Positions 18,071-61,343 of a stretch of DNA of 64,000 nucleotides are shown here, one piece after another. Source of the stretch: Leptolyngbyaceae cyanobacterium (lineage in GTDB: Bacteria > Cyanobacteriota > Cyanobacteriia > Phormidesmidales > Phormidesmidaceae); assembly GCA_965263355.1 (NCBI GenBank), contig CBDHHL010000039.1:18821-82820 (forward strand), read 5' to 3'. The notes beneath the pieces are model-generated. The model had not been told where the DNA came from. It ran no database searches and was given only the letters and a program-made list of their open reading frames with translations. The position numbers and the translations under genes are program-made. How positions within the stretch are numbered: the stretch's first letter is position 1; the number at the start of each line of letters is the position of its first letter.

Positions 18071-18277
18071 TCAAGTCAAAACTCTAAGATGCTTTCCCGT
18101 TGGCTTTCCGCTTTTCAGTGCTGCTTCAGGGAATTCTGGCAATGATACCTCATCAGGGGACTGAAACATGCCATTACGACGCCTGCCGAGATATTCTCCT
18201 GTTTTAGGATCAAACTGATAGCCCAGCTTACGAGCTAATTCGTGCCGTTCGTTTGGAACGTCTGAAAGATTCGCCAT
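18071..18277 (-). CDS. Hypothetical protein
   Basis: ORF. Confidence 0.5.
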   Translation of the reverse strand: MANLSDVPNERHELARKLGYQFDPKTGEYLGRRRNGMFQSPDEVSLPEFPEAALKSGKPTGKHLRVLT

Positions 18278-19178
18278 TGCTAAAAATCCAAAATATTATC
18301 CAACTAAATGCGGCTGCGTCGTACCAAAAAATAGACCACAGCAAAAAAATAGACCACACCAAAAGCACCCTACCGCGAATAGTCCAGAGCAACCAAGCCC
18401 ATAGCCAGCCATAAGCTAGCAAGCCTAGGAAGCCTGTTTCTATTAGCCTGTCGAGCCAAATATTATACGAATGCTTAGTATCTTCATCAGGGAAAGCGCC
18501 GTCCGAGCATTGATACGACCACCGCGAATATTGAAGTATGCCCACTTCGCGGCATTGACGAAACGCTTTTTGAAGATTCAAGCCATTGAACCCGTAGCCA
18601 ATCAAAGGCGATCGCTGAGCATATCTGAATGCCCTAGCCCAATAGTAGGTTCGATTTGAACTGATCCGTCTGATCTGCGCCATCACTGGAGTATGGGGCG
18701 ATGCTGTCTCCCCAACTTGCTTATTGTTTGTCACAAGTCCAATAAAGACTAGTGCCGATAGCACGACGGGGATACTTCGCTTCCAGCCAATAGCTACCAA
18801 GTTGCAAATAACGGCCCCCAGCATGGCTATCCTTACGCCAGTATTCAGTGTGGCAATCGTATAAAGAACCAATAGCCATTTATTGGCTTTGTACTGAGCA
18901 GCAACGGCGCAGCACATCAGCATAAACCCTGCATATGCGCCAAAGTTTCCGAACAGCCCATGCATGGGATACTGTTCAAAGCCAATGCCAAAAAAGTGAA
19001 GTACCCATTGAGTGAGGCCAGCGGCTGCATTAATTACCCCTCCAATATGGAAGCCCGTTAGTTGGGCTTGGAATAGTTCGGGTCGTTCTTTAAGGATTAG
19101 TCTGTTAAACAAAAAAAACACAGCCACGGTTATCCACCAAAGAAGCCCGCAAGCTTTTCCGTAGTAACCAAGGACACT
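18228..19178 (-). pseudogene. O-antigen ligase (Wzy_C/WaaL-like) membrane protein, 5'-truncated at the IS605 end
   Basis: R...W..A......SPLIGYG and HSYNIWLD.LIETG.LGL motifs; many TM helices; the track start codon lies inside the IS right end. Confidence 0.7.
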
Positions 19179-19218
19179 TTGACAAACTCCCACGGATAAA
19201 TCACGTGGGATTCCCCGG

Positions 19219-20343
19219 TCAAGCAGCGATAGCAGGCTGAGCCCGTCTTACATCGCCTTCCGGTTGAGCGGTCATTGCCCCGACCGCTTTAATGTTCTTG
19301 CTGGCGTTATCATCCCGGTCGTGAATGGTCAAGCACTCTGGACACTGCCATTCACGCACCTTGAGATCTAGGCTATCGAGGACATGACCACACTCTGAGC
19401 AGGTTTTAGAGCTGGGATACCACTGGTCAATGTAGACCACTTGCTTACCCTTCTTAGCTGCAACACATTCCAGAATGCCGAGGAATTCAGCAAAAGCTAA
19501 ATCGTTAACCTTGCGTCCCCATAGCCGTTGCATCCCCTTGAGGTTCAACGTCTCAAAATAGAGAATATCGAACTCATCGGTTAATCTGTGGGCCAACTTC
19601 CAAAACCAATCTTTACGACGGTTAGCGATAGTCTCATGCTTGCGAGCAAGGTTTAATCGTGCCCGTTCCCGATTAGCCGATCCCTTTTTCTTTCGGGATA
19701 ACTGGCGGGATGCCTTTTTGATCTCCTTAATAGACTGCTTAAAGAACAATGGCGACTGAATCTTGAAGCCTTCAGAGCAGGTGAGAAAGTCTTTCAGGCC
19801 AAAGTCAAAACCAGCGGTTTTACCCGTCTCGGCAGTGACCCGAACGTCTACAGAATCAACGACAACGGCAATAAATAACTCACCTAACGGTGTCCGCTTA
19901 ATGGTGAGCGTTTTTACCTTGCCATCAATCTCTCTACTATTCCAGAACTGATAGACCTTATTCCCTATCTTCAGACGATTGCCGCCAAGGAACTTATAGC
20001 CAGCTTGCTTAAGTGTGAATGATTTATACTTTTTAACCTTCTTAAATGACGGTGGCTTAACCCCCTTGTCATGGTGCTTAAAGAACAACTGATATGCCCG
20101 CTCAATCCGTTGACAGATATCCTGCACAGCTTGAGACCCCACCAACTGCCAAAACGGGTTACGCTTTCTAAGCTTGGCGATATGCTTCTGAAGCTTGGCA
20201 CAGTTCAAGTGCTTGCCAAACATGCGGTAATACCGCTTATGCAAAGCAATGCAGTGGTTATAGATAACGCCAGCAGCATTGATAGACCGCTTTAGATACC
20301 TATTCCGTTTGTGACTGTATAACTTAAACTTCAGTGTTCTCAT
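19219..20343 (-). CDS. tnpB: TnpB RNA-guided nuclease
   Basis: RuvC GFDFG / FETL / DRDDNA and zinc ribbon CSECG..CPEC; start MRTLKFKLY. Confidence 0.95.
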   Translation of the reverse strand: MRTLKFKLYSHKRNRYLKRSINAAGVIYNHCIALHKRYYRMFGKHLNCAKLQKHIAKLRKRNPFWQLVGSQAVQDICQRIERAYQLFFKHHDKGVKPPSFKKVKKYKSFTLKQAGYKFLGGNRLKIGNKVYQFWNSREIDGKVKTLTIKRTPLGELFIAVVVDSVDVRVTAETGKTAGFDFGLKDFLTCSEGFKIQSPLFFKQSIKEIKKASRQLSRKKKGSANRERARLNLARKHETIANRRKDWFWKLAHRLTDEFDILYFETLNLKGMQRLWGRKVNDLAFAEFLGILECVAAKKGKQVVYIDQWYPSSKTCSECGHVLDSLDLKVREWQCPECLTIHDRDDNASKNIKAVGAMTAQPEGDVRRAQPAIAA

Positions 20344-20384
20344 ATGTCTATGATAACATGATATAGACATATAGCAATAGACAA

Positions 20385-20783
20385 ATGGCGCAAAAATATC
20401 GACATGATAATACGTCGGTCTCACTCATCAACTATCACTTTGTTTGGATAGTGAGACGACGCAAAAAGATATTGAAGGGGGATCTAGATAATCGCCTGAA
20501 AGAACTGATACGTCAGGCAGTTACAGAAATTGACTGCCAGCTGATAGCACTAGAAACCGATTTAGATCACGTTCATCTATTTCTGAATGCTCACCCACGG
20601 TTAGCGCCCTATCAAATCATGCATAAGGTTAAGGGGTTAAGCTCCAACGTTCTGAGAAAGGAGCAACCCTGGTTAAAACAAAAACTCCCGTCACTATGGA
20701 CAAGGAGCTATTTTGTGAGCACTATGGGCAATGTCTCAGGGGATACGATTAAGCGCTATGTTGAGGAACAGAAAACTAAATGA
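20385..20783 (+). CDS. tnpA: IS200-type Y1 HUH transposase
   Basis: YHFVW, DHVHL, LWTRSYF and YVEEQ motifs. Confidence 0.95.
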   Translation: MAQKYRHDNTSVSLINYHFVWIVRRRKKILKGDLDNRLKELIRQAVTEIDCQLIALETDLDHVHLFLNAHPRLAPYQIMHKVKGLSSNVLRKEQPWLKQKLPSLWTRSYFVSTMGNVSGDTIKRYVEEQKTK

Positions 20784-32237: not shown

Positions 32238-32591
32238 CTAAATTGCCGCAAACTGTTGAATTGACAGATTAATCTGCTCTCGCTTCTGCCAAAGGCTGCC
32301 TAGCTTTTTAGATTGTTTTTTCTCTAGCCAAACACCATGTTCAAGATAGTAGCTAATCTCATGTGCCTTTAGCCCTCTATGGGCCAAAATCTTTTCTAAT
32401 GCCTGAAAAGAAAAGTCGTCTAGTTGCTTAACATAATTGCCAGAACGCCAAGCCGCAATTGTTTGATGACTTGCTAGTCCATCGCAGCGATCGCTTAGGT
32501 CTCGAACCGTTGCATCAATTCCAGCTGCTTTAAGTATCTTTTTCGATAGCAGCTCTGATAATCTTTGTTTATATTGCGTTGATGCTCTCAT
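32238..32591 (-). CDS. Putative HTH regulator
   Basis: TVRDLS...ASHQTIAAWRSG. Confidence 0.5.
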   Translation of the reverse strand: MRASTQYKQRLSELLSKKILKAAGIDATVRDLSDRCDGLASHQTIAAWRSGNYVKQLDDFSFQALEKILAHRGLKAHEISYYLEHGVWLEKKQSKKLGSLWQKREQINLSIQQFAAI

Positions 32592-32601
32592 GGCCGTTAA
32601 A

Positions 32602-33453
32602 CTATGAAACTAAAACTTTCAGGCTAATTATTTCGATGGGGGGAAGTGCCCCTAGTGACAACATGCCCTGCTTACATTCATGAGCAAGGCTCAAATCAGG
32701 CTTGCTTGCTAAATTTACTCCTCTGTAAATAGTATTTACAGATTCCTTTGATTCTAGGATATCAAATTGTTTGGGCGGTCGCAGTAAATCAATTAAGTAT
32801 TTTGCTGAACCATCGCTTAAGTTATCGGCTTTATCGCCGACTGCTATCTTCCATCGCCAAACATCATCACATCTAAATGATTGATAGCTAGGCAATGCCC
32901 ACCATTTTTGACGTTTCTTAGATTGCTGGTTCCATTTGCTGCAAAGCCAATTAAATATCTCTTCTCGACTTCGAACCCGTGGTGGATGGTTGCGAGTATT
33001 TAGCCAAAAAATATCAGGGTCTTGGACTAACCCATGCCAGTCACTATCAACGGTGGCCAAATAAATCTGATCGATTAATCCTGAGCTGCCATCTAGCCAT
33101 AGCCGAACAATAGCAGCGGCTACGTCGTCGGCTTCTTGTGATTTTATGTCAATCAAAGAAGCACTACTGCTTAATATGCCCTCCATCGCAGTATGAAATG
33201 ATGCGGGTTTAGGTTTTCGGCCTGCTTTGTAGTCGGGGAATAACTGATTACGCCAGTAGGGCTTAGAGTCAATTGCCCAGACGCATCTACCAGTTGATTG
33301 CAACGCGGGAATCCAGCCTAGTGAATTAACCCATTCTGCCGCCATGTAAGCGTAAGCTTTAGCATTAGTTTCGGTTAGGCCTGCCTTGTCAATCTGTGCC
33401 GACATTTGGAAGGCGATCACAGACGTATCAACAACAATTAAATTATTCATCAT
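32602..33453 (-). CDS. 5'-3' exonuclease / flap endonuclease (PIN fold)
   Basis: VVD, WR...PDYKAGR, EADD, DSD and GDKADN motifs. Confidence 0.85.
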   Translation of the reverse strand: MMNNLIVVDTSVIAFQMSAQIDKAGLTETNAKAYAYMAAEWVNSLGWIPALQSTGRCVWAIDSKPYWRNQLFPDYKAGRKPKPASFHTAMEGILSSSASLIDIKSQEADDVAAAIVRLWLDGSSGLIDQIYLATVDSDWHGLVQDPDIFWLNTRNHPPRVRSREEIFNWLCSKWNQQSKKRQKWWALPSYQSFRCDDVWRWKIAVGDKADNLSDGSAKYLIDLLRPPKQFDILESKESVNTIYRGVNLASKPDLSLAHECKQGMLSLGALPPIEIISLKVLVS

Positions 33454-33731
33454 TAAAAAAATATTTTTGGACTATTTTGATCCAGCTTCCAAGTACTTGG
33501 GATTAATGCAGGACCGCCATCGCTCCAACCGACAGGGATGACAGGAAAAGAACACTCAGAAGCTTTGCAGCTATTACTTAACGGGTTACCCTGCATCAAA
33601 GCTGACGGTCTATAACCAGGAAATACGGCCCAGATAAACCCATCAGCGCGAGAAAATACAAGGTAGTAGTGACCGAGAATATTGACGTAATCACCAATAT
33701 TGCCGTGTAGATTGAATTTCATTTTGAGCAA
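33453..33731 (-). CDS. Hypothetical protein
   Basis: ORF. Confidence 0.5.
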   Translation of the reverse strand: MLKMKFNLHGNIGDYVNILGHYYLVFSRADGFIWAVFPGYRPSALMQGNPLSNSCKASECSFPVIPVGWSDGGPALIPSTWKLDQNSPKIFF

Positions 33732-33838
33732 AAGTTTCCTCTATTTCTTCTGGTGTAGCTTGACGTTTTCGACCATAATCATCAATCCAATATTTGCCAT
33801 CGTCGTAATACATGGCCTGACCTATTTTGTTTTCACGA

Positions 33839-35380
33839 TCAATCTCTCATTAATTTGTAAATTAAACTTTGAGCTTTAGCGATGCATTCTTGAAACTCTT
33901 TTTCCTGAGCAGAGTCGACGGCGTACCACAATGTTTCTAGCCCTGGGATTGCAAGAAACCCGTCAATTTCGTACTCTTCACAAAAGCAGTCAATCAGGCA
34001 GATCATGACGTGCATAGCATCGGTTAATGGTCTTAATTGCAGCCAGTCAGCCTTAGCTTTTTTGTTTGCTTTCACTGGCTCAGGCGGTTTAGCAAAATGC
34101 GTTTTAATGTTCGGCTGGCTGGCTAGTGTTTTAGCTAATGCATTCCCTGGAACCGTTGGCATCGGAACCCTAGCTTCAAACAGCATGTAACTAGTGGTCG
34201 GCTGATCACTAACTCCAGTAATTAAAAATTGCCGAATCATCCAATGATGACTCCAAATAGTGCTTTTGGGCATCCCTGATACATCGTGAGCAGGGTTAAA
34301 GCCCATATTGACCATGCCGTTAACGCTATATCCATCGCGAAATGTACGCAAATGTGATTTGCCCCAATTAACTAGAGCAATATCATTAGAATCTCGTTTG
34401 CTAAGCTTGATTTTTTTGGCTTTTTCGTATTCAGTTTCTATATAAGAAACAAGTTCTTGCCAATCACCAACCGGATATCTAAGCCCAGTCGTTGCCGCCA
34501 TGCCATAAAGAATCACTGGGCTTGGGCAATAGATGTTAGAAACCAGTGGCCATAGTTCTTGAAACAATCGAAGGGTTACCCAGACATCTTGAGCGCAATA
34601 CTCAAACAGTGTCTGTGGCCCTTCTCCACCAACTGTTTTCAGAATCTCAATTCCCAGCACATCACTAGCTAAACTGGCCAGATCCATGTCGGACGCCTGA
34701 GTTACCCAATCAGGAGCAGGCTTACCATTAGCGATCGCAACCTTGTGCTTCTCATACTGCGATCGTTGTTCTTTGTGAATGCCTCTGACAAGCATTGCCA
34801 GGGCCATCACATCTATAAATAGACAACGTTCTGGGCCATACTCTGCATAAGAGCTACTAAGAAATTGCGAGTCATGGGCAGCCCCGTTCTGAGTGATTAT
34901 GATGCAACCAGTTGGGAACGGAATAGTACGCTGCGCAGTTTCCGTCCAGCGATACATTGGATTTTGCTCTTGCCATGCATACCAGTAACCATCGGCCCCA
35001 TAGCAAATGCATAGGCAGGGCAACCATGCGTCTATATCAGCGTTGGCTGTGAATGCTTGCAGCTCGATGGATTCAACATCGAGCACCATGGTTGTAGGCA
35101 GATCATCAGGATCTATAAAATCCCAAGTCCAGCCTCCATCAAAGCGAGCCCAACCATTCCCACCTAACTGGTCCAATGTTGGGATAAATTCAACCGGGAA
35201 TCGCTCAACTTGCACATTATTTAATAGGGGGGTTAATTCAACTGCAATGTCATACCAAAGATCCCCAACCATTCCTTCTAGCCAAGCTCGCCATTCGGCA
35301 CCTGTGGCCCCCTCCTTAGGATATGGATAAGAGCTGAACTTTGGTTCTGTTACTGGTCTAGTAATTGTTGTTGCTGACAT
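33839..35380 (-). CDS. DNA polymerase gamma-like protein: 3'-5' exonuclease motifs intact, polymerase domain degenerate
   Basis: VLDVE, QN.AAHD, FIDVM, YCAQDVW.T..LFQ and CP.PV.L.GM; motif C region reads LAIPGLET instead of ISIHDE. Confidence 0.75.
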   Translation of the reverse strand: MSATTITRPVTEPKFSSYPYPKEGATGAEWRAWLEGMVGDLWYDIAVELTPLLNNVQVERFPVEFIPTLDQLGGNGWARFDGGWTWDFIDPDDLPTTMVLDVESIELQAFTANADIDAWLPCLCICYGADGYWYAWQEQNPMYRWTETAQRTIPFPTGCIIITQNGAAHDSQFLSSSYAEYGPERCLFIDVMALAMLVRGIHKEQRSQYEKHKVAIANGKPAPDWVTQASDMDLASLASDVLGIEILKTVGGEGPQTLFEYCAQDVWVTLRLFQELWPLVSNIYCPSPVILYGMAATTGLRYPVGDWQELVSYIETEYEKAKKIKLSKRDSNDIALVNWGKSHLRTFRDGYSVNGMVNMGFNPAHDVSGMPKSTIWSHHWMIRQFLITGVSDQPTTSYMLFEARVPMPTVPGNALAKTLASQPNIKTHFAKPPEPVKANKKAKADWLQLRPLTDAMHVMICLIDCFCEEYEIDGFLAIPGLETLWYAVDSAQEKEFQECIAKAQSLIYKLMRD

Positions 35381-35709
35381 GATTTATTAGTTTGTTTGAA
35401 CTTTTGACCGGCCCATTGTGCGTGCTTACGTTTCGCATTTTGAGCTTCTGTTTCTTTTGTATCGTCGTCATGGGCCACACCAACAGCTTGGCGACGGTAT
35501 ACCTCAATTAAGTAAGGGATTTTATGCTTTTTCTTATTGAGGCAATCAAGCCGTTGGTCAACATCTACCCACCAAATGCCATCAGAACGAGTTAGGCAAT
35601 AATCACAGCGACATAGGCTAGCGTCTAAGCCTGGGATGATGGCATCCGATGGGGCAGTGCATTTGGTTTTAGAACGACGGGTTAAGGGTAGTTCTAATTG
35701 GTGAGGCAT
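35350..35709 (-). CDS. Hypothetical zinc-binding protein
   Basis: CRCDYC motif. Confidence 0.55.
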   Translation of the reverse strand: MPHQLELPLTRRSKTKCTAPSDAIIPGLDASLCRCDYCLTRSDGIWWVDVDQRLDCLNKKKHKIPYLIEVYRRQAVGVAHDDDTKETEAQNAKRKHAQWAGQKFKQTNKSCQQQQLLDQ

Positions 35710-35711
35710 GG

Positions 35712-36551
35712 TTATACAGGAAAGATTTCTAGTGGGATACCTGCGCCTGTTTTTTTCAGGACTTGAGCGAATTCATTGTCAATCAAATAAGCTTTCCACT
35801 TGTACATGGCCAATGGAACCATGTCGAATTCTTGCAAGCACCATTCTTTATAGCTTTGATACCATTTAGAAATTGGTTTTTGTTGGTTTCTAATCAAAGC
35901 TAAGCTAGCCAACCAGTTCTCAACACTGCGGGCCTGTAATTCACGCTTTCGTTTGATAAGGTACTTTTTGCGATTATCTTCTGCAATCAATTGAGCGCAT
36001 GCATACTCTGGATAACAAATTAGTGCAGCTCGGTGCTTAAGGTCTCGGGATTGAGCGCAGTCCTTTGGAAACACATCTTCGATTTGCTCAACCATTTTAA
36101 TGAACTTAAGCTCATGGGCTGGGATTGACTCTTCAGCCTCCAATCGGCCTTCAGTCATATAAGTACGAACCCATTTGCTAACTTGCAGGGCAAATGCTGG
36201 GCTGCACCACATTGCAAATTGAATAGCAATATCAGGGTGTGCCCATGTCCCACCATTACGGCCTTGGATGGTTCTAATAGGTGGCTCAATATCCTTGCTA
36301 TCACTAGCATTTTCTGAAAACTCCCCCTCTGAGGGGGTAGATAAGTACGGACACTTTTGATGTCTTAAAAACTCATCAAACAATTCTTTCGTGGGCTCGG
36401 TTTTTAGCCAATGATCAATTCGCTTGCCGGTAGCATTAGCCATCTGATTGAGATTGATATAGCCATCTTCTCGCTTTTGCCAGATATCAACTTGATTAAA
36501 GCTGCGAACGATATTGGAATCGTTATTGTCGTTGGAAGTGTTTATGGTCAT
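35712..36551 (-). CDS. KilA-N domain protein with primase-like C-terminal winged helix
   Basis: DGYINLNQMANATGK and GTWAHPDIAIQFAMWCSPAF. Confidence 0.85.
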   Translation of the reverse strand: MTINTSNDNNDSNIVRSFNQVDIWQKREDGYINLNQMANATGKRIDHWLKTEPTKELFDEFLRHQKCPYLSTPSEGEFSENASDSKDIEPPIRTIQGRNGGTWAHPDIAIQFAMWCSPAFALQVSKWVRTYMTEGRLEAEESIPAHELKFIKMVEQIEDVFPKDCAQSRDLKHRAALICYPEYACAQLIAEDNRKKYLIKRKRELQARSVENWLASLALIRNQQKPISKWYQSYKEWCLQEFDMVPLAMYKWKAYLIDNEFAQVLKKTGAGIPLEIFPV

Positions 36552-36622: not shown

Positions 36623-38341
36623 TTAGCACATAAAAATCAACTGTTTACGTGCCCTAGTAGCTGCGGTGTACAGCAGCTTTCGAGGATCCCAAGTTTCGTC
36701 AAATTTTGCTTGTGCGTTCGACATAAGAGTCTTCATGTCAAGCACGACAATATCTACTGTTACGCCTTGCAGCCGATGGCAAGTGCTCACATAGCTGTAA
36801 CTGGCCTTATCAGCAAAGTTGGCCAAGTCAAAGTAGTCTATCCACAATCTCGTTTTAAGCTTTTGATATTCATACTGCTGTAAAGGTTTGCCGTTCTTCT
36901 TTTCCCACCAATTTTTTAAACCAAACTCTTCCCAAACAGCCTTAGCCTGCTCCCCTTCCTGTCCTCTAATACCTGTAGATTTACGACTGCGGGTCTGAGT
37001 AACTTTTGCTCGGCTAGCTAGCTGCTTACATTCAAGCTGCCATTGGTCGTACTGAGCTGGGTTGAGCAAACATATTGCTTTTCGTTCCGAGAACGGTAGC
37101 CCTGACTCATAACGCCGATACCGAAAAATCATCCGGCTAAATTTAGTACCAAGCTTTGATGTCATCTCAAATGACTGGTCTGTAAGAATTGTTCCAGAAG
37201 TGCCAAGACTTACATATGCACCCGGTCCGCATAGGTCGCCAAGTTCTAAAAGTGTGCTGGTGTGTTCTTCCAGCTTCGATTTTTTCCCACCGCAAGCAAC
37301 GTCATAAGCATATGAACTGCTACGGCTAACAGCATTCAACGTCAACACAACATCCCCTGGATCGTAAAATAGTCCAGACAAATCCCCATCTTTGAGAATG
37401 CCGCGAATCTGATAATTAAGGGCCATCACCCTAGCGTTAGTCGCTGCAGCAAATCGGATAGACTCCCCAGCTGCGTACAGTTCTTTAAGTTGAGGCATGA
37501 CTTCCCACTCTTGCAGAACCATTAAAGTGTCATCTTCCTCCACTCGCTGATGCAGCCAGTTGTAATCTCGTTCAGTACGAACCTTATTGCAGTATTCAAG
37601 AATTGCGCCCTTATAGCGAACAACCTCTGTTAACTCTTGGAATGACGGCAAAGACTCAACCTTGCTAATTGTTTCGCCAATAGGTGGCAGCTGAGCAGGA
37701 TCCCCCAAGAAAATAATTTGAAAGTCAGGGTGCATCACTGGGTCATTCGCTAGTTCGCAAAAAAGCCCATATAGAAGCTTGTCGATCATTGACCATTCAT
37801 CAACTAACAAAAACCTGACTTTTTCTATTCCTTCCTTGAGCTTTCCGCTAGGCACAAACGATTGAACTTCAGCGTCTGAAGCGTTGCGACGTATCAACAA
37901 AGCATCAATTAACGCCGATTCATCCGTACTTCTAAGCTCTTCTTTAATGCCTAAAAGGACATCTAATTTATCTTGGTCCTTTCGTTTGAACTCAACTGTC
38001 TTAGGCCGCAAACCAAGCAATGAATGAGCGGTGGTCACCTCAGTGACAGCACTTCCCCTCAACGAGTTCTCAATCACCCCTTTAGCTTGATGAGTAGGAG
38101 CGCAAGCCCAGACAGGACCATTAATAAGCCCCTCTTCAATAGCAGCCTGCACAACATATTTAATCACGGTGGTCTTTCCCGTCCCAGCAAAGCCAGTCAC
38201 ACGAGCAAGCTTAGAAGGCTTAAGCCTTAGCCATTCCAGTACCTCAGCTTTAAGAACCTCTTGCTGGCCTGTCAACGTTATTTTTGGCGATTCGTCATCG
38301 CCAGTAGCCATCAATAATGACGACTGAATCGCCTCAACCAT
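36623..38341 (-). CDS. RecD/Dda-like SF1B helicase
   Basis: GFAGTGKT, APTH, VDEWSM, GDPAQLPP, TCHRLQG and LYTAATRA. Confidence 0.9.
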   Translation of the reverse strand: MVEAIQSSLLMATGDDESPKITLTGQQEVLKAEVLEWLRLKPSKLARVTGFAGTGKTTVIKYVVQAAIEEGLINGPVWACAPTHQAKGVIENSLRGSAVTEVTTAHSLLGLRPKTVEFKRKDQDKLDVLLGIKEELRSTDESALIDALLIRRNASDAEVQSFVPSGKLKEGIEKVRFLLVDEWSMIDKLLYGLFCELANDPVMHPDFQIIFLGDPAQLPPIGETISKVESLPSFQELTEVVRYKGAILEYCNKVRTERDYNWLHQRVEEDDTLMVLQEWEVMPQLKELYAAGESIRFAAATNARVMALNYQIRGILKDGDLSGLFYDPGDVVLTLNAVSRSSSYAYDVACGGKKSKLEEHTSTLLELGDLCGPGAYVSLGTSGTILTDQSFEMTSKLGTKFSRMIFRYRRYESGLPFSERKAICLLNPAQYDQWQLECKQLASRAKVTQTRSRKSTGIRGQEGEQAKAVWEEFGLKNWWEKKNGKPLQQYEYQKLKTRLWIDYFDLANFADKASYSYVSTCHRLQGVTVDIVVLDMKTLMSNAQAKFDETWDPRKLLYTAATRARKQLIFMC

Positions 38342-38558
38342 ACAAATCACCCAAAATCTCTACAACCACAATAGTAGCAACCACAACCATACCTGTAAAG
38401 ACACTTGACAAAAAATAAACGCCACTGACAGGCCAGCAAGCGAGTCCTTCAAAAGCAAAAATCAGAGCAACTGGCACACTAAAAAGCAAATTTAACGACA
38501 GAATGCGGGTTTCAGCGCTTTTCAGCTTTAGTGCATCAGTACTATAGTTTTTGGGCAA
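38334..38558 (-). CDS. Small membrane protein
   Basis: Two hydrophobic segments. Confidence 0.45.
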   Translation of the reverse strand: MPKNYSTDALKLKSAETRILSLNLLFSVPVALIFAFEGLACWPVSGVYFLSSVFTGMVVVATIVVVEILGDLYG

Positions 38559-39233: not shown

Positions 39234-41483
39234 TTAGTTGAATAGTCCTAGCATTTTTCTAATGTCAACGTCTTTTAGGGGAGGCAGTGTTAGCGGTATG
39301 CCTTCTCCTGTCTTCCTCTGAGTTTCGGCCCCGGCGGCAAGGATGTATTTTTTCCAATTTCGCATTTTTAATGGTTTGCAGCCCGTGTCGATCACCCACT
39401 CTTTATAGCGGTTGTACCAGACACTAATTATTTGAGTTTGAGCAACGGATAGTTCTAAATGCTCCATCCATTCATAGACAGTATTTGACTCTGCCAAGTG
39501 ACGTTGCTGTAATGCTATGTTCTCCTCAGACTTGAGGTGGGTTTTTAGTACCTCCACTGCTTCATCTAGGGAGATAGCCCAGGCCCAATTAAATATTCCT
39601 GGTAGCTCAGCTTTTAACTTGTTGGCCAGCTCTGTATCAATCTCGGTAGGTTTGCGGCTAAATGGGATATATAGTACTCGCCTACTAAGGCCTTCTTGGT
39701 CAGCTGCCCTGGACTTGATCGGTTGGTTCATGGCTGCCCATAAGACAGTTTTGAATTCTTCGGTTCTTTTATCTTTATATTTAGCTTCTACGTCCAGGGG
39801 TTCGTTGACACAGATTGAGTTGATATTTCCAACCGCCTGACTGCTCAATTCGCCTTTGAGATCCATTGCAAAACAAGCCCGTTTGCCGGACATCCCGTTC
39901 ATGCCGCGAGCATCATTTACATTGTGATAATTCCAGGCGGCATAACTGCCCTCGCCTATCAGCTGCGTTAACACACTTAAAAATGTCCCTTTACCGAGGC
40001 CAGCGGGGCCAATTAGAACAGGCCAGATATGGATAGGGTAGGGGCCTTGTTTTTTAGGCGTGATCGTCCAACGAATAAGGGCTTGAATAATCTCTGGCCA
40101 CTTTTCATCATCTTCAAACAGCCAATTCAGCCAGGTTAGCCATTGGATGCACTGCGCCTCAGGGTCATACGAAAACCCTAATGTCTGAGTAATATAATTT
40201 TTAGGAGAGTGTGGAATAAGCTTTTTTTTATTAAGCTCCAGCACTCCATTAATAAATCCTAGTAGATGCGGTTGATCGAATTGATCTTTGCTTAATCGGG
40301 TCTTGTTCTCCACAAACCTCAGTTCTTGCGCCGCGATCGCACGCTTCCTATTTAGCCAGTATTGAGCGTCGGCTATTTGTTCGGAAAGTAGTTTCCAGGC
40401 TTCCTCGCCTACGTCTTTCCAGATGCCCTCTGGACAATATTGACGTTTTGAATAATCAGGGATATTGGCATAAATCCCATGCAAGGATAGCCAGCTGATT
40501 AACCCCCTAACATGATGCTGTTTATTAATAGGAGTATCTTTGTGGGCATCGTCTCCCAGTGGTTCAGCCGCAAACAGGCACTCAGTATCTAATGACTTGT
40601 CTTCCCATTTGCATTTTACTAATGGCAATGCATGTCTTAACAATTCCTTTACTGGTGACTCGCCTAATAACACAATTGCGTCATCTAAGCCTAGTTTTTT
40701 GGTCTTTTTTTCATTAGCAAGTTTTAATCGGGTTGGGAGCAGCGCATACTTTAATTTTTTAGCTAATGCTAGTGTTCGGGTAGGCACTCGCTCATTAGAA
40801 CATGTCTCGTCTATTTCGAGCTGATGATAAGCCTCTATTAAGTTTCCAGCCAATGCTTTGATAGCTCTAGCAACCTGATATTTGTGGGTGATGTCGCTGT
40901 CAAAAACTATGGTTAAATTTTGCGCGGCTCTGACATCAATTTCATCAACCAGGCATCCTAAAGCACGGTTACCCCATTCGTCCTTATCGCCAGTCTTGTA
41001 ACTGTAAACCCCTCCAATCCCTATGCATGGAATATTACAGAGTGTTGCCAGTAGGCTTTTTTTCTCGCCTTCTGTTAAGGCTAGATTAATGCCTGAAAGC
41101 TTAGTAAAATCGACTTTGTTAGCCACTCTCGGAAAATAAATCCGTGGGGGCGCCCCTTTTGGGGACAGATATGTGCATTTTGGGCTTGGCGGGTTGTCTG
41201 GCCTGAGTCTAAAAAATGGCCTGTTATCATCCCCCCATCGATATACGTCCTTGCCGTCAATCGTGAAATAAGTGAATATCAGACCGGCTCTACCGTGGCC
41301 TGTGAGCGTTCTAGCTAAGGCAGCATCAGCGCTAAATATGCCAGCTACCAGGGCAGCACTGGGACTTATACCGCTTTCTGCCAAATGACTAATGTGATGG
41401 GCTTCTAGATAGTGCTGCTCGGGCAGCTCGGGAATAAACTTGCGTATTGATTTCCATCCAAAATTAGCTCTTAATCCACTCAT
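39234..41483 (-). CDS. Primase-helicase (DUF3854 TOPRIM + D5-like SF3 helicase)
   Basis: TEGEKK, IGIGGV, FDSD, GLDD, F.NGVL and GPAGLGKGT. Confidence 0.9.
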   Translation of the reverse strand: MSGLRANFGWKSIRKFIPELPEQHYLEAHHISHLAESGISPSAALVAGIFSADAALARTLTGHGRAGLIFTYFTIDGKDVYRWGDDNRPFFRLRPDNPPSPKCTYLSPKGAPPRIYFPRVANKVDFTKLSGINLALTEGEKKSLLATLCNIPCIGIGGVYSYKTGDKDEWGNRALGCLVDEIDVRAAQNLTIVFDSDITHKYQVARAIKALAGNLIEAYHQLEIDETCSNERVPTRTLALAKKLKYALLPTRLKLANEKKTKKLGLDDAIVLLGESPVKELLRHALPLVKCKWEDKSLDTECLFAAEPLGDDAHKDTPINKQHHVRGLISWLSLHGIYANIPDYSKRQYCPEGIWKDVGEEAWKLLSEQIADAQYWLNRKRAIAAQELRFVENKTRLSKDQFDQPHLLGFINGVLELNKKKLIPHSPKNYITQTLGFSYDPEAQCIQWLTWLNWLFEDDEKWPEIIQALIRWTITPKKQGPYPIHIWPVLIGPAGLGKGTFLSVLTQLIGEGSYAAWNYHNVNDARGMNGMSGKRACFAMDLKGELSSQAVGNINSICVNEPLDVEAKYKDKRTEEFKTVLWAAMNQPIKSRAADQEGLSRRVLYIPFSRKPTEIDTELANKLKAELPGIFNWAWAISLDEAVEVLKTHLKSEENIALQQRHLAESNTVYEWMEHLELSVAQTQIISVWYNRYKEWVIDTGCKPLKMRNWKKYILAAGAETQRKTGEGIPLTLPPLKDVDIRKMLGLFN

Positions 41484-41610: not shown

Positions 41611-41687
41611 TGTACTTGTAAGGCGTTTAGGGCGGTTCGATACCACGTTTGCCCTAACTCGATGTTCAAAAATTGGAATTTATTATT

Positions 41688-42869
41688 ATGGCAAGATTTC
41701 AAAAGAAAGCCTCTAGTGCTCAAACTGTTGAAAATACTGCAACTGTGACTGCACCAAGCATCAATCTTACTCAAAGGTTAATAGATCTAGAGACAGAGTT
41801 ATTGAGTGCTGGGATTAACGAAGATAAGATTGACATCCCAGATCAGAGCTTACCGGAAGATATTCGTGGGGCGTTTAACCAGCTTGCCGCGAAACTTGGC
41901 TTTACTGAGTACAATCCAGATGGCTGTACTTGCGTTTTTGTAAAAAATGACAATGGCGGTTATTTAGCTACACCTGCTGTTTATGCCTATGAAGACGGGA
42001 TTTGCATCAGATGGGGACAGCAGCGATTTGTTATCCCTAATGAAACTGTATTTCCTAGCGATTTGTATGCGCTTAATTTAGGCGATGACACGCTGATTTT
42101 AGATCCATCTGGATATGCGTTGGTTTGCCCTGTTCGCTTACAGTATGAGTATCGCTCTGAAGATGGGCGAAAACTCGTTAGCGCTCGTTTATCTATGGCA
42201 AATACGCCTGAAAAACTTACTGAGTTTTTGCTGCGAGGAGAGGAAAGGGTTGAGTGGGGGGATGTAGAAGACGGTTCAGATATTGAGTTTGCCCATATTA
42301 AATGGGTTCCCAAGAGAGACAAAGAAGGTGAATTTTACGGATCTATCTTAGGTGTTGTCGGTGAAAAACCGGTGCTTTTTTACGCACCAGGCAATAAAGA
42401 AGATTGGGTAAATTTTTCTATTGATGAAAACGGCTGGTTCACTGAAGAATTAACCGTTTCCAAGGAAGGCAAAAAACTTAGTGTTAATGGGCATGAGTTT
42501 GAGCTGACGGGAGGCAATTACATGAAGCTTTCCGAGCTTAGCCCTGAGGCTGAATATAAGGTAGTTGGTTACAAAAAGACTCAGGGCAAGTTTGGTGATG
42601 GGGTTGAAATTTATGTCATTGTTGATGGCTCTGAGAAGACGATTAATGGCAATACTTATATTAAACGGGTGCTTTCGGGCTCTACTACTCAATTAAGCAT
42701 TGATGCCCCTGCAATCCTTTCTATTGATAGGATTGAAGAGATGAAGAACAAGAACAAGCGAGTTATTTGTCGTTTACGTTTGCCTGAATCTTCTCAAAGT
42801 TCTTTTGTTGCGGGCATCAAGGCTCGTATTGCTGAGAACTCTAAGGCTCCTCAGCCAGCCGCTATTTAA
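41688..42869 (+). CDS. Hypothetical replication protein, possibly SSB with OB folds
   Basis: Divergent from primase; beta-rich, e.g. YKVVGYKKTQGKFG. Confidence 0.4.
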   Translation: MARFQKKASSAQTVENTATVTAPSINLTQRLIDLETELLSAGINEDKIDIPDQSLPEDIRGAFNQLAAKLGFTEYNPDGCTCVFVKNDNGGYLATPAVYAYEDGICIRWGQQRFVIPNETVFPSDLYALNLGDDTLILDPSGYALVCPVRLQYEYRSEDGRKLVSARLSMANTPEKLTEFLLRGEERVEWGDVEDGSDIEFAHIKWVPKRDKEGEFYGSILGVVGEKPVLFYAPGNKEDWVNFSIDENGWFTEELTVSKEGKKLSVNGHEFELTGGNYMKLSELSPEAEYKVVGYKKTQGKFGDGVEIYVIVDGSEKTINGNTYIKRVLSGSTTQLSIDAPAILSIDRIEEMKNKNKRVICRLRLPESSQSSFVAGIKARIAENSKAPQPAAI

Positions 42870-42920
42870 TAGTTAGTTTCATGCAGGGGTCATCTGGCCT
42901 CTGCTGTCTTGCTTTTTGAA

Positions 42921-43961
42921 ATGGTCATGAAAACAGGTTTATTCCCTACCCCTGGTAGCAAAAAAGATCGCGTCAAGTATCCTGTATGGGATAGGCGTTA
43001 TGTTTATGATGCCAGCATTGAGCCTTTTGCCTGTGCTGGCCACTTCAGTCATTGGATGCTCGGCAACGGAATTGTTAAGCGGGCTTTTTTGGCTGATATA
43101 GATCCTGTTGTTCAGGTAATTTATCAATGCTGGCAAGATAACAGTCTAAGGCAGCAAGTAGAGAAGACTATTAATAATTGGTCTAAAGAAGTGCTCTCGA
43201 AGGGGCCAAAGGTTGTTTACGAAAACCTTAAAGTCATTGTTGATACTAAGGATACAAGCGACTGTGTAACACTTGCTGCCGCGTCATTGTTGATTCGCGA
43301 GTTCACGTTTATGAGCTGCCTCAGGGCGAATACTAAGGGGCGATTAAACGTAAAAGAGAGTCGTGATAAGGTAGCCAGTCTCAAAAAAAAGTCTGGGTTT
43401 GTGAAAAATGAGCCTCAACTGTCGCCAGAGTTACTTGAAACACTGAATGATGGCTGGGGTTATAAGATGCCCTGGTTTAGCCCTAATTGGAAGCTTCATT
43501 TTTCTAATGACGCTCATGCTTGCATTGATAGTTTTGAACTGTCTACTACTGGCAAAACGATCGCTTTGCATGATGCGCCTTATTGGGTGCCGAAAGGCTC
43601 TAGGCCGGGACGACGGGGGACAGGTGCATTAACACCGTCGTATATCTGCCATGGTGATCCGCAAGGGAGCGATTTGTTTGATTTGATTGTTAGCACGTTA
43701 GAAAGGCTGTTGGCTAACCCTCGAATTGAACGGGTTGTGATGACTAATTATATTTCAGACCCATTGTGTGACGCGATTGAACGGATGGATAAGCTTGGCC
43801 GTGATTGGCGGCTAACATCTCTTAGTGTTTTGACTGGGGGCAACAACGGGATTAACGGCAATAGTCGAGACGATCAGTTTGTCGAGGGTTTTTGGGAATT
43901 CGGGGGCGATTTTACGCTGGGCAAATATGAACAAAAAAGTTTATTGGAGTTGGCGGTTTGA
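42921..43961 (+). CDS. Dam-like (D12 class) adenine methyltransferase with variant motifs
   Basis: PGSK, IEPFACAG, LADID and HDAPY (DPPY-like). Confidence 0.7.
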   Translation: MVMKTGLFPTPGSKKDRVKYPVWDRRYVYDASIEPFACAGHFSHWMLGNGIVKRAFLADIDPVVQVIYQCWQDNSLRQQVEKTINNWSKEVLSKGPKVVYENLKVIVDTKDTSDCVTLAAASLLIREFTFMSCLRANTKGRLNVKESRDKVASLKKKSGFVKNEPQLSPELLETLNDGWGYKMPWFSPNWKLHFSNDAHACIDSFELSTTGKTIALHDAPYWVPKGSRPGRRGTGALTPSYICHGDPQGSDLFDLIVSTLERLLANPRIERVVMTNYISDPLCDAIERMDKLGRDWRLTSLSVLTGGNNGINGNSRDDQFVEGFWEFGGDFTLGKYEQKSLLELAV

Positions 43962-46783: not shown

Positions 46784-47575
46784 TTAGCCTCCAAGTCCTT
46801 TGATATAGTTCCAGATCATATGGTCATCAACTATGAAAGCCTCAGCAATCTGCCCCTTGATTGCTGAGGCAAACTTTTCGATACGAGTTACTGTGTCAGG
46901 CTCTTTGGCTCTAACATTCTGCCATTCGTCAGGGCTTTCTATGATTTTCCCCGTTTGGTGGTTCGTAATTATTTCGTGGCACCATGGATGAGATGCACCG
47001 ACTCTGACATCTAGGCCGATTAGGTCTAATACTTTTTTAGTTGTATCGAAGCTCAGCATAATTCGGCACACGGGGTCAGATCCATTACGCACCTGCCAAG
47101 TTTTATCTTCTAAGCCTAGCGCCCGGTGTTTATCGGCTCCGGCTTCATCCATGCCCCTGGGTGCTCCAAAGGTGATAATACTTTCAATAGGACAACCATT
47201 GTCAGCTGCAATCATGCCGAACATCAAAGAGATCGCGCCTCCAAGGCTATGACCAATCAGTTCTAACGGGCTATCTAATAAATGTTCTTTCTGGCAATGC
47301 TGCATAAATTTCAAAGCACCATCATAGAACCCAGTATGAGCCTTGAAATCTTTGCATTCTTTATGGGGCCAAAAAATTAGATTAGACCGCTTCCAATCAG
47401 ACCATAGGGTATCGGTGCCTCTAAAAATAATGGTTGTTTTTTCTTTGCTTTTGAGATACCAAGCGACATTATTTTCTATCGTTATTTTTTTATAGTGCTC
47501 AAGAAAGCCAGCTGGGTTTTGCAGATAAGAAGCGTTGGCCAGTTGAGCTTGGTAGATAAGTTTAGTTTGCTTCAT
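46784..47575 (-). CDS. Lipase class 3 (alpha/beta hydrolase)
   Basis: IFRGT, HTGF, GHSLGG, TFGAPR, N..DPV and C-terminal DH. Confidence 0.9.
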   Translation of the reverse strand: MKQTKLIYQAQLANASYLQNPAGFLEHYKKITIENNVAWYLKSKEKTTIIFRGTDTLWSDWKRSNLIFWPHKECKDFKAHTGFYDGALKFMQHCQKEHLLDSPLELIGHSLGGAISLMFGMIAADNGCPIESIITFGAPRGMDEAGADKHRALGLEDKTWQVRNGSDPVCRIMLSFDTTKKVLDLIGLDVRVGASHPWCHEIITNHQTGKIIESPDEWQNVRAKEPDTVTRIEKFASAIKGQIAEAFIVDDHMIWNYIKGLGG

Positions 47576-51844: not shown

Positions 51845-52609
51845 ATGGATACATGGTTAAGCCCACGCGTAATTGAGCGATGCGGAGACAGAGAACTAAC
51901 GCATGAAATCAACCTGGCTCAGGTGCCGGTTCGCATCGGTCGATCACCTGGGGTATATGAAGCTGATTCTTATATTCGGATTGGGGCTATTGCTCCTACA
52001 TTGATTCAGAAACGCATTAGTCGCTGTCAGGCCACTATTACGTATAGTTCAGACGGAGAATACTATATTAAAGATGGCAACGGGACTGAAAGCGGGCTAG
52101 GCGTTTATTATGATGGGAAGCGAATTGAAACGCCTCTAAAATTATATCCTGGCATCCGTGAGTTATTGATTGTTCCTCAGCTTCAAGGGGCTAAATATGA
52201 ATGCCGGTTTCAATGGCTGAAAAGCGAACAGTTAGAGGGGGAAAACGAGGTTGATCCCCTTAAAACGATGGGCGCTCGCAACGTATATTTGGAGTCGCAG
52301 TTAGAGTCTAAAAATGCTGAAAACTCGCAGCTAGTGGGCGATGTGATCGCGTTGCAGGAACAAGTAGAATATTTAACTGCTCAGCATCAAAAAGAGAAAT
52401 TAGCAGAAGTTGAGCAAAATCATAAGATTGCTCAACTTTACACGTCATGGCAGAAATTGAAAAAGCTTTGGACGGTGCTGGGCGTTTTAATCGCGTTGAT
52501 TGCAGTCGTTCTACTGGGGATTGACCCTGAGTTGATTAATAAATTGATTAGCGGTGTTATTGTGTCGTTGACTGCTTTTGGAGTTATAAAGACGCAATCT
52601 GATGATTGA
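51845..52609 (+). CDS. FHA-domain protein with coiled coil and C-terminal TMs
   Basis: IGR, ISR.QA.I and YIKDG...S..GVY.DGKRI. Confidence 0.75.
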   Translation: MDTWLSPRVIERCGDRELTHEINLAQVPVRIGRSPGVYEADSYIRIGAIAPTLIQKRISRCQATITYSSDGEYYIKDGNGTESGLGVYYDGKRIETPLKLYPGIRELLIVPQLQGAKYECRFQWLKSEQLEGENEVDPLKTMGARNVYLESQLESKNAENSQLVGDVIALQEQVEYLTAQHQKEKLAEVEQNHKIAQLYTSWQKLKKLWTVLGVLIALIAVVLLGIDPELINKLISGVIVSLTAFGVIKTQSDD

Positions 52610-52612
52610 GGA

Positions 52613-53725
52613 TTAGCTTGCAAGTAAGTCCAATAAGCTTAGCTGTTGCTTTTTGGGTGCTTCCTCAGGCGTTTCGGTCTGTTGTTTTAGCCAGTCTAAT
52701 CTAGCCTGCTGCGATACAAAGCTTTGTTCTTTGCCGACTTTGCCACGGGCTACATCTGCCCAATGAGGATCAATATCAATCCCAATAAAATGTCGTCCGT
52801 GCTTTTTGGCAGCTACTAGAGTATTTCCGGAACCACAAAAGCAATCTAGGACTACTGAATTAGGCTTAGAACTAGCGTTTATTATGTGCGCCATCATGGT
52901 CAATGGCTTCTCGCATGGGTGCTTGCCTGGGTAGCTTTGCACTGTGGGGAAGTCCCATATATCCGTGTAGGGTACGTTTGACGATACGATAAACGGTCTA
53001 CGTAGTTCTTCGTATTGCTGACGTAGTTCTTCGTATTGCTGACGTAGTTCTTCGTATGGGCGTTGAAAGTAACCGGGGAATGATGATTGGAGGGTTTTGT
53101 ATTGGTCTTTTAGAGGTAACTTCCATTGAATAGGGCTAAAAAAATGCGAGTCATGCCCCCGCATCCCAAGAATATGTATTATTCGTCTATGTGCAATTTT
53201 GGCTTTGGCCCTCTCTCCATCTAGATATGCCCGCAACGGCTCAAACACAAACCCGCGTAACTCATCGCACTTTGCCTGATAACCTGCTTCGCCTTTAGCT
53301 GCGTTATCTGCGCCGTAATGTTCACAAAAGATAATTGATTCTGATGCAGGGAAATAGCCTCTAAGAATTTCTTTGCATGATCCTTTATGAAATCCTTGTT
53401 CCTTCCTCCACCGAATATTATTCAGCACATTAAACCGATCTCTCAACAACACCTCAACTCGTGCTGACATTTTTGTGCTCGCGAAACAATACAGGCTGCC
53501 ATTAGGCTTTAAGATGCGTTGCCATTGTGCGGCTAGCTGGTCAATCCATCTCAAGAATTCTGCTGAATTATCCCAGGCGAGATCCCACCACTCGAATTTG
53601 CCTTTAGAACCGCTCCCTTTTACCTTAAAAAAAGGTGGGTCAGTTGCTATTAGATCAATGCTGCTATCAGGGATCTTGTCCATCACTTCTAAGCAATCGC
53701 CCTGAATAACTTGATTTAATTCCAT
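52613..53725 (-). CDS. Beta-class N4/N6 DNA methyltransferase
   Basis: GDCL, TDPPF, HPCEKP and LDCFCGSG. Confidence 0.92.
   Translation of the reverse strand: MELNQVIQGDCLEVMDKIPDSSIDLIATDPPFFKVKGSGSKGKFEWWDLAWDNSAEFLRWIDQLAAQWQRILKPNGSLYCFASTKMSARVEVLLRDRFNVLNNIRWRKEQGFHKGSCKEILRGYFPASESIIFCEHYGADNAAKGEAGYQAKCDELRGFVFEPLRAYLDGERAKAKIAHRRIIHILGMRGHDSHFFSPIQWKLPLKDQYKTLQSSFPGYFQRPYEELRQQYEELRQQYEELRRPFIVSSNVPYTDIWDFPTVQSYPGKHPCEKPLTMMAHIINASSKPNSVVLDCFCGSGNTLVAAKKHGRHFIGIDIDPHWADVARGKVGKEQSFVSQQARLDWLKQQTETPEEAPKKQQLSLLDLLAS
53000..53057. repeat. 21-bp tandem repeat encoding YEELRQQ, about 2.8 copies
   Basis: ACGTAGTTCTTCGTATTGCTG repeated. Confidence 0.95.
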
Positions 53726-53881
53726 AGCAAAACTCAACACGATCGCACCAGTACATTATCCCCTGAAAATGCCAGAATAGACCTAAGCTGTCAACTTTGG
53801 ATATACTGTGAGATTCCGTTTAATTGAAAAGGTTGAAAGCTAGTTGGCATTGTCTAGATCTTTCGTTGATGGGGTAGAGCA

Positions 53882-54921: not shown

Positions 54922-54999
54922 TTTTTTGCGCTGCGTTGTACGGAATGGAAATTAAATTTATCCCTTGAACATCAAAAAACTTGAGCGTTTTTTGATGTT

Positions 55000-61273: not shown

Positions 61274-61343
61274 CGTATCGACCTGCAAACGACATAATTA
61301 AAATATACCCATATCTGCCCAAACTGTCTATAAGCATAATGGC

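Follow-up and report, generated by a model that had tools for sequence, protein, structure and literature searches.

A Pol-gamma derivative with intact exonuclease motifs and an amputated polymerase in a phage-like region of a cyanobacterial assembly

The protein described here, P0001, is encoded by an uninterrupted open reading frame (ORF) of 513 amino acids at positions 33839..35380 (minus strand) of a 64,000-nucleotide stretch from a Leptolyngbyaceae cyanobacterium (assembly GCA_965263355.1, contig CBDHHL010000039.1, positions 18,821 to 82,820). The whole of this stretch is called the window. P0001 is almost certainly a Pol-gamma-derived protein which is maintained by selection and is dead as a polymerase. 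Its polymerase part is amputated and not merely mutated: thumb/spacer and fingers have been deleted, and a folded palm is left. An initial annotation, made from the DNA letters alone, had read the gene as a Pol-gamma-like protein reduced to an exonuclease with a dead polymerase remnant, and had suggested a fold comparison, a phylogeny, an estimate of dN/dS (non-synonymous against synonymous rates) and a search for a separate polymerase. Its ancestry, dead polymerase, exonuclease motifs, selection and neighbourhood have stood, whereas the relevance that it claimed for the origin of mitochondrial POLG proved weak.

The full-length frame and all the motifs quoted in that annotation are found in the translation: GWARF at residues 76-80, VLDVE at 99-103, FIDVMAL..VRG at 188-200, YCAQDVWVT..LFQ.LWP at 261-278, CPSPVILYGM at 285-294, and DAMHVMI...CEEYEIDGFLAIPGLETLWY at 454-486. 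Pol-gamma ancestry is borne out by domain, sequence and fold. The Pfam family PF18136 (DNApol_Exo) matches residues 75-217 (E 5.3e-11, 42.6 bits against a cut-off of 26.7), and PHROGs gives two weak DNA-polymerase families on the N-terminal half. Against PDB sequences, phmmer returns 18 matches at E<=10; the 14 best are POLG or MIP1 (best E 1.1e-9) and the other four are at chance level (E>=0.64). A weak third phmmer stretch places residues 441-488 on the motif C region of POLG, with L481-E482 opposite H1134-D1135 (numbered by way of the 10-residue offset that separates the 8v54 row from the 8udk row). A profile of 14 family sequences matches POLG at E 4.5e-27, and the motif C stretch is again included. 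The AlphaFold model of P0001 (mean pLDDT, the predicted local distance difference test, 88.6; predicted template modelling score, pTM, 0.89) matches human POLG with Z 33.5 and a root-mean-square deviation of 3.3 over 455 aligned residues, residues 14-513 lying on POLG 127-1167. Since the match spans this range, exonuclease and palm are in the native POLG packing, with the 500-odd intervening residues gone. Thirty-five POLG/MIP1 structures (Z 19.6-33.5) outrank the first other family-A polymerase (Z 17.1), Foldseek agrees, and no best match lies outside the Pol-gamma clade. Mic1 is the sole match of P0001 among 50,697 phage records, and the best viral fold matches of the model are entries of 959 and 608 amino acids.

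The short form is a conserved protein family rather than a wreck. A word search reduced 4513 candidates to five full-length homologs of 493-517 amino acids, and 379 matches at E<=0.001, the best 150 of which were listed, came from a profile search against 1.84 billion representatives. Subdomains were scored in 57 of 153 proteins (P0001-P0056 and P0085, the top of the list). At least 15 are short forms (P0001-P0013, P0023 and P0085, with P0009 and P0085 partial); the complete ones have 469-525 residues and, where aligned, are 27-94% identical to P0001. Only R329, W339, G340 and W446 are invariant across 14 aligned members, two rows of which are partial. An origin from phage or cyanobacteria has been established at just two loci, the window and L002, where P0003 (50% identical to P0001) is encoded on the 122-kb contig G001:C1 of a cyanobacterial metagenome-assembled genome (MAG), G001. 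The family is rare in the phylum sample around G001, since 1 of 401 genomes contains it, namely G001 itself. A word search for longer forms (906-2585 amino acids) gave none at E<=0.001 among 3537 candidates, a blank which reflects sensitivity because many were found with HMMER. When family members or close relatives (including P0021 and P0019) served as queries against viral and metagenome contigs, no further locus was confirmed.

The loss of the polymerase can be followed along the chain with subdomain profiles built from 25 active relatives. About 130 thumb/spacer residues are gone in P0001 relative to the active P0018, the distance from W307 to W339 being 32 residues against 160 in P0018 if the helix assignment holds; the thumb/spacer profile has no match in P0001. 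In the stump, R329, W339 and G340 are invariant and R301, K341 and H343 nearly so. Its second helix (331-348) would be the descending thumb helix, hhalign being ambiguous on this point. Residues 330-400 align weakly. They match the descending thumb helix and motif 2 (its arginines lost) in colinear order in one alignment, and not in another, which scores slightly better. The motif-A profile reaches 1.2 bits on P0001, against 70-111 in its 25 active training sequences. In the model, a strand (398-404) survives at the expected place of motif A in an uncertain register, the aspartate position falling on R404 when anchored on the preceding Tyr, or on D392 if a weak hhalign alignment is followed, whose probability is under 1%. 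From the model, we take this strand to be that of motif A and put R404 in the place of the aspartate, with D392 as the alternative; the POLG names of motif A and motif 2 residues are those which we take to apply. Beyond the strand, residues 410-511 align with 650-759 of the active relatives (hhalign probability 98.5, E 2.7e-15), so that the chain passes straight to the last fingers helix, with about 100 residues and motif B deleted. The fingers profile (motif B, R-x3-K-x7-Y-G) has no match in P0001.

The same anatomy is seen across the family. The thumb/spacer, motif A and fingers profiles give at most 8.9 bits in any short member; the training set scores 70-169, and six full-length proteins that were not part of it (P0017, P0047, P0049, P0050, P0052 and P0056) score 33-150. 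The motif C palm, by contrast, is found in most short members. The 25 active relatives have 410-724 residues between the Exo III Asp and the Q-helix Trp; in 13 short members this distance is 174-209. Motif C HD (His-Asp) is present in 25/25 active relatives, as is the motif A Asp, against none of 14 short members (a count that leaves out the near-identical P0002), and no short form examined has it. In these 14, the motif C Asp column holds Glu four times, Asp twice, Arg twice, and Tyr, Asn, Ala, Phe, Gly and Thr once each.

The initial annotation had aligned the C-terminus with POLG motif C and had found the catalytic HD simply missing. The alignment holds and the HD is lost, but the Asp column of P0001 carries an acidic Glu, which is not conserved in the family. 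Motifs A and B had been called unrecognisable; no profile match was indeed obtained, but motif B was deleted with the fingers, a strand survives at the place of motif A, and thumb/spacer is deleted too. P0001 should be unable to polymerise, because it has lost the fingers, which bind dNTP (deoxynucleoside triphosphate), and because the carboxylates of the palm are not conserved. The dead polymerase is thus supported, the two catalytic aspartates not both being in place.

The remnant is under purifying selection. Between P0001 and the L002 gene, the proportions of non-synonymous and synonymous differences (pN/pS) are 0.374/0.815 in the remnant and 0.335/0.809 in the exonuclease. In the C-terminal part, pN is therefore far below pS and close to the exonuclease values, in keeping with the dN/dS check that had been proposed; no exact dN/dS is given for this pair because pS is saturated (above 0.75). 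Among the best 40 of 150 differences from public contigs (three public runs of one study, at most two samples), 36 fall in the gene and touch 32 codons. In the remnant, with its 118 synonymous and 455 non-synonymous sites, 14 of these codons are synonymous and 4 non-synonymous; in the exonuclease the figures are 11 and 3. The counts are indicative, since the displayed differences are a support-ranked subset. The only insertion or deletion among the listed differences inside the gene totals three bases. P0002 differs from P0001 at 5/162 positions in residues 350-511 and at 17/224 in the exonuclease core. The idea of a salt bridge that pairs the motif A Arg with the motif C Glu, the two being exchanged in P0005, agreed with the six closest sequences but was rejected because it failed in distant members.

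The exonuclease motifs are intact, as the initial annotation had held: all five DEDDy residues are present in P0001 (D101, E103, D170, Y261 and D265). Each is kept in 10-13 of the 12-13 short members per position, and D101, D170 and D265 are retained in every member covering them, over 27-50% identity. The exonuclease core is the best-conserved segment in most pairwise comparisons. In the alignment, Exo II of P0001 is one residue longer than in the A-HIS/POLG-type rows, a feature common to most of the clade. P0011 is a full-length short member which is possibly dead in both activities.

No separate polymerase, another point raised in that annotation, was found in the 64-kb window or in the whole related prophage. 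The thumb, motif A and fingers profiles, searched in six frames of the window and of the 122-kb G001:C1, gave nothing besides the Pol-gamma remnant gene, whereas the Mic1 control was detected at E<=1e-17. Pfam found no polymerase domain in 90 of the 114 ORFs (>=100 amino acids) of G001:C1. In 69 window ORFs, it found no polymerase family beyond the exonuclease matches of P0001 and one DNA_pol3_a_NII match on a 119-amino-acid ORF (E 0.026). PF00476, PF00136, PF07733 and PF09250 (PolA, PolB, Pol III alpha and Prim-Pol) have no match in the G001 MAG, which is incomplete since host PolA and DnaE were not found either.

Descent was studied in trees of the exonuclease domain, with 150 of 157 sequences past the coverage filter (FastTree) and 53 chosen rows in IQ-TREE (LG+G4); the root is set by the chosen outgroup, and human POLG is outside the tree. 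A 32-row clade (100/99) contains 12 short forms, six other polymerase-dead proteins and 14 active polymerases. A separate clade (100/97) contains the described phage Pol-gamma enzymes A-HIS1, S-TIM5, S-CBWM1 and Mic1, with which the family does not branch, together with four long rows which we take, from length and motifs, to be eukaryotic. The same split appears in the 150-row FastTree. The suggested phylogeny thus sets the short forms among active Pol-gamma-like polymerases, away from the A-HIS1/Mic1 clade. The active-looking members (P0014-P0016, P0018-P0020, P0022, P0024, P0026, P0028, P0031, P0033, P0034 and P0036; 745-1110 amino acids) carry S, A, R, H or Q, not E, after the HD of motif C. 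The nearest active relatives of P0001 are unnamed metagenomic proteins of this length, far from the described cyanophage enzymes.

The six other dead proteins, P0021, P0027, P0032 (726-769 amino acids, thumb/spacer kept), P0044, P0029 and P0039, are full-length or partly truncated, with exonuclease motifs intact and polymerase motifs eroded. They resemble stages, independent or intermediate, of one and the same loss. P0044 lies within a 100/99 group of six active enzymes. Parsimony counts 3 changes, and the approximately unbiased (AU) test, run with a simple model on a group named after the first tree had been seen, rejects a single dead clade (p 0.03). It is indicated by these sequences that the polymerase was lost at least two times, probably three. 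Because its clade is separate from that of A-HIS1, S-TIM5, S-CBWM1, Mic1 and the long rows, the family would be a derived side branch and not a step toward mitochondria. It shows how varied phage Pol-gamma is; the claim made for the phage origin of POLG is weakly supported.

Genes for a tape-measure protein, endolysins, a serine integrase and methylases give the window the appearance of a temperate-phage segment. On G001:C1, an element of about 96 kb carries a small terminase, DUF4055, a P22-type coat protein and a lysozyme, and host-type genes flank it on both sides. The window and L002 share the order 398-amino-acid protein (divergent), primase-helicase, Dda-like helicase, variable slot, 119-amino-acid ORF, Pol-gamma remnant, 5′-3′ nuclease and 117-amino-acid ORF (Table 1). 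The neighbouring 5′-3′ nuclease and helicases of the initial annotation are thus present, in a neighbourhood conserved with two helicases in two genomes. The variable slot of L002 holds three other ORFs in place of the KilA-N gene, and the 398-amino-acid protein has a weak atlas lead to phage single-stranded-DNA-binding proteins (scores under 0.9). A scan for promoters and terminators gave counts at or below shuffled expectation.

Table 1. Positions of P0001, its parts and the surrounding module in the window
Feature	Window positions	Strand	Basis
Pol-gamma-derived exonuclease and dead palm (P0001)	33839..35380	-	Pfam, PDB matches, model
N-terminal helix and DEDDy 3′-5′ exonuclease domain, residues 14-300	34481..35341	-	PF18136, model, structural match
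Exo I, D101-x-E103	35072..35080	-	D in 12/12, E in 10/12 members covering the site
Exo II, N165...D170	34871..34888	-	N and D in 13/13 members; alignment
Exo III, Y261...D265	34586..34600	-	Y in 12/13, D in 13/13 members
Thumb stump, helices 307-322 and 331-348 joined directly	34334..34480	-	Model, alignment, profiles
Eroded motif-2/motif-A region without DxD, residues 350-409	34154..34333	-	Motif-A profile, model
Last fingers helix, Q-helix and motif C palm, residues 410-513	33842..34153	-	hhalign, profile
Motif C column, L481-E482-T483 replacing H-D-x	33932..33940	-	phmmer, family alignment
119-amino-acid ORF, Cys/His cluster, no family	35350..35709	-	Overlaps P0001 start by 31 nt; conserved and adjacent in L002
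QLELPL hexapeptide, residues 4-9 of the 119-amino-acid ORF (N-terminus)	35683..35700	-	5-sequence alignment
Stand-alone 5′-3′ exonuclease/flap endonuclease, acidic motifs present	32602..33453	-	PF02739, weak NCBIfam; homolog directly downstream in L002
117-amino-acid ORF closing the module	32238..32591	-	37% identical homolog, same place in L002
KilA-N protein in variable slot between helicase and 119-amino-acid ORF	35712..36551	-	PF04383
Dda/RecD2-like SF1B helicase	36623..38350	-	Library matches; 60% identical homolog in L002
DUF3854 and D5/P4-type primase-helicase	39234..41483	-	Library matches; 48% identical homolog in L002
398-amino-acid protein, divergent from primase-helicase, no Pfam family	41673..42869	+	38% identical homolog, same place in L002

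Several other features of the two elements were recorded. Contigs of runs X2/X3 have joints at window 35396-35588 and 33716-33831 which skip 191 and 114 bases (30-letter sides), and loose contig ends at 35711-35773 show the KilA-N gene replaced by other sequence. A 350-amino-acid ORF at window 42909-43961 (+) is adenine-methylase-like by eye and has no Pfam, PHROG or NCBIfam match. Cargo-like genes at 54397-55551, 18228-19193, 51845-52609 and 46784-47575 include a circularly permuted YpsA SLOG protein adjoining a PNK3P-like phosphatase, an O-antigen-ligase-like membrane protein, an FHA protein and a class 3 lipase; homologs of the last two, the FHA and lipase genes, occur in G001:C1. IS200/IS605 (TnpA and TnpB) and IS607-like insertion sequences lie at 19219-20783 and 59867-61967, and their best plasmid matches are cyanobacterial in 12/13 and 3/3 records. 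G001:C1 has an Acb2/Tad1 hairpin domain match (L010:10447-10809), a possible anti-defence sponge, and genes for a PAS histidine kinase and a receiver domain inside the prophage, beside the lysis genes (L013:6229-8983).

The function that is best compatible with these data, at a probability of roughly 0.6, is that of a 3′-5′ exonuclease for DNA ends and flaps, with palm and stump as a duplex cradle and synthesis by the host. A phage Pol-gamma-type replicase would have been cut down to a single-function DEDDy exonuclease packed on the palm and the thumb stump. The palm and the basic stump (R301, R329, K341, H343) would retain the former cleft for duplex DNA and pass 3′ ends on to the exonuclease site. 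The substrates may be intermediates of replication and recombination, whose 3′ ends or 3′ flaps would be trimmed, a role complementary to that of the 5′-3′ flap nuclease next door and exercised together with the Dda-like helicase and the primase-helicase; the phage DNA would meanwhile be made by a host polymerase, as the absence of a phage polymerase suggests. According to the accessible text of PMC7156551, phages with an active Pol-gamma share Pol-gamma, flap endonuclease (FEN), helicase and primase; by analogy, the module of the window would be this module minus synthesis.

Some considerations count against this reading. Exonuclease activity, substrate and pathway are predicted from sequence, model and neighbourhood; the conserved neighbourhood, from which substrate and pathway are deduced, is known for two genomes only. 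The motif-A register is ambiguous between R404 and D392. The exonuclease motifs are altered in two members, P0008 having D-x-D and P0011 being without the Exo I Glu and the Exo III Tyr, and catalysis is therefore not essential in every lineage. The incompleteness of the G001 MAG limits its polymerase negatives, and about a third of the phage in the window lay outside the search, since the relative encoding the near-identical P0002 is on a 99-kb contig as compared to the 64-kb window. Moreover, 3′-5′ trimming may be redundant in the G001 prophage because of a 207-amino-acid ORF there (L009:17037-17660 of G001:C1) with DEDD-like motifs by eye and no Pfam match.

The best placed of the alternatives, though an improbable one, is a proofreader in trans with an epsilon-like role: the 119-amino-acid protein would bind the host beta-clamp via QLELPL and bring the exonuclease to forks where the host polymerase copies phage DNA. 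Q4, L5, E6 and P8 are invariant in 5/5 homologs whose N-terminus is otherwise variable, and the hexapeptide fits the clamp-binding consensus Q-phi-x-L-x-L, as in Hda according to the accessible part of bioRxiv 10.64898/2026.05.27.728225. QLELPL may thus be regarded as a candidate beta-clamp-binding motif, a lead from sequence. The fit is exact in 3/5 homologs, the other two having I4 or A6 variants, and QL.LPL has a single match among 130 window ORFs. The ORF overlaps the P0001 start codon in both genomes, and the lack of a phage polymerase in the window and the related prophage also agrees with this proposal. However, the motif is short and the five sequences are fairly close; the loose pattern occurs 14 times in the 130 window ORFs, with 5 of the 14 within 15 residues of an end against about 2.5 expected by a rough estimate, which is not convincing. 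The pairing is seen in two genomes, and the small protein, which has a Cys/His cluster and whose C-terminus is basic, may instead be an unrelated regulator. Its predicted fold is unusable (pLDDT 43), and the atlas gave no usable match; complex prediction with P0001 (14-513), which scored 0.00 in two runs with an uncertain partner fold, speaks neither for nor against the proposal. Loose clamp-motif-like words also occur at the C-termini of the 350-amino-acid protein (42909-43961) and of a methylase (52613-53740), and at the N-terminus of the helicase (36623-38350); by eye, the helicase word has no conserved counterpart in L002.

A nuclease for defence against superinfecting phage DNA ends, or for nucleotide salvage from host DNA, comes next and is improbable as well. 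It would suit the intact nuclease motifs and the temperate context (a serine integrase in the window, an integrated relative), but the gene lies inside a co-directional replication operon in both genomes, PADLOC (2023 library) has no match for P0001, P0003, P0008 or P0021, and bulk degradation should need no primer-template cleft. Still more doubtful is a scaffold or DNA-end-binding hub for helicase and flap nuclease with incidental nuclease activity. The invariant R329, W339, G340 and W446 all lie outside the exonuclease site, and P0011 has lost two catalytic residues; against this, the constancy of D101, D170 and D265 and the high conservation of the exonuclease core in most pairs speak for catalysis.

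Residual polymerase or nucleotidyltransferase activity via E482 and D392, or with a fingers subunit in trans, is very improbable. The motif C column is acidic in 6/14 short members, D392 is invariant in the six closest sequences and falls on motif A in the weak alignment, and split PolA genes occur in S-SBP1-like phages (PMC10201439, accessible text). But 8/14 members have R, Y, N, A, F, G or T in that column, D392 is in a loop of the model and is not conserved in distant members, and no fingers gene was found in the window or G001:C1. A decaying prophage pseudogene, which the IS605- and IS607-like elements of the window might suggest, is hardly credible given uninterrupted ORFs of near-constant length down to 27% identity, a confident fold, a strong synonymous excess in the remnant and a single listed indel of three bases in total.

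P0001 shares with human POLG and yeast MIP1 (PolA cluster 2, CDD cd08641) the PF18136 exonuclease, the palm with its Q-helix and the same packing. Unlike POLG (1239 against 513 amino acids), it is phage-encoded, is without spacer, thumb tip and fingers, and has the HD replaced; its clade is also separate from the long POLG-like rows (human POLG itself being outside the tree). A-HIS1/A-HIS2, S-TIM5, S-CBWM1 and Mic1 likewise have a phage Pol-gamma in a module with FEN, helicase and primase (PMC7156551, accessible text), but they keep motifs A-C, which in Mic1 span an intron-split pair of ORFs, and belong to the other clade (100/97). In the split exonuclease/polymerase PolA of S-SBP1-like phages and CCPol, a family-A exonuclease also stands apart from polymerase activity, yet there an active polymerase gene lies next door according to the accessible text of PMC10201439, whereas in P0001 the exonuclease is joined in cis to a dead palm, and the search for a polymerase partner was negative. 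Catalysis-free polymerase folds or nuclease-only polymerases of families Y, X and B, as far as the available texts go, are similar in principle and belong to other families. DnaQ/epsilon resembles P0001 as a stand-alone 3′-5′ exonuclease, here possibly editing for another polymerase, and in clamp tethering, the motif being on a neighbour in the present case; it differs in being DEDDh and not of the DEDDy Pol-gamma type, in its own clamp and alpha contacts, and in having no palm.

The short-form family is apparently undescribed: no polymerase-dead Pol-gamma or family-A group was found in the literature searched, which comprised few subscription papers and main texts without supplements. The 2023 family-A classification reports strict conservation of the catalytic residues in all clusters (PMC10201439, accessible text), and the family-A cases in the accessible part of a 2026 bacterial survey combine a dead exonuclease with a live polymerase, the reverse of P0001. 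The family appears to be the missing opposite case, in which a family-A fold is kept for its nuclease. A broader account, tentative and on the whole unlikely, would be that an unreported phage Pol-gamma-like clade gave up synthesis several times, each independently, yielding a fingerless, thumbless pseudo-polymerase whose palm presents DNA to the exonuclease and which, docked here to the clamp by a small partner, edits or trims host-made phage DNA.

A natural POLG core of about 500 residues, made of exonuclease and palm, offers a small, well-folded model for the contribution of the palm to POLG-type editing. The series from active to full-length dead to truncated forms suggests a stepwise route by which a phage may hand replication to its host. 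Beyond this, the large unnamed reservoir of Pol-gamma-like polymerases is relevant to any study of the phage origin of POLG, on which the family itself bears indirectly.

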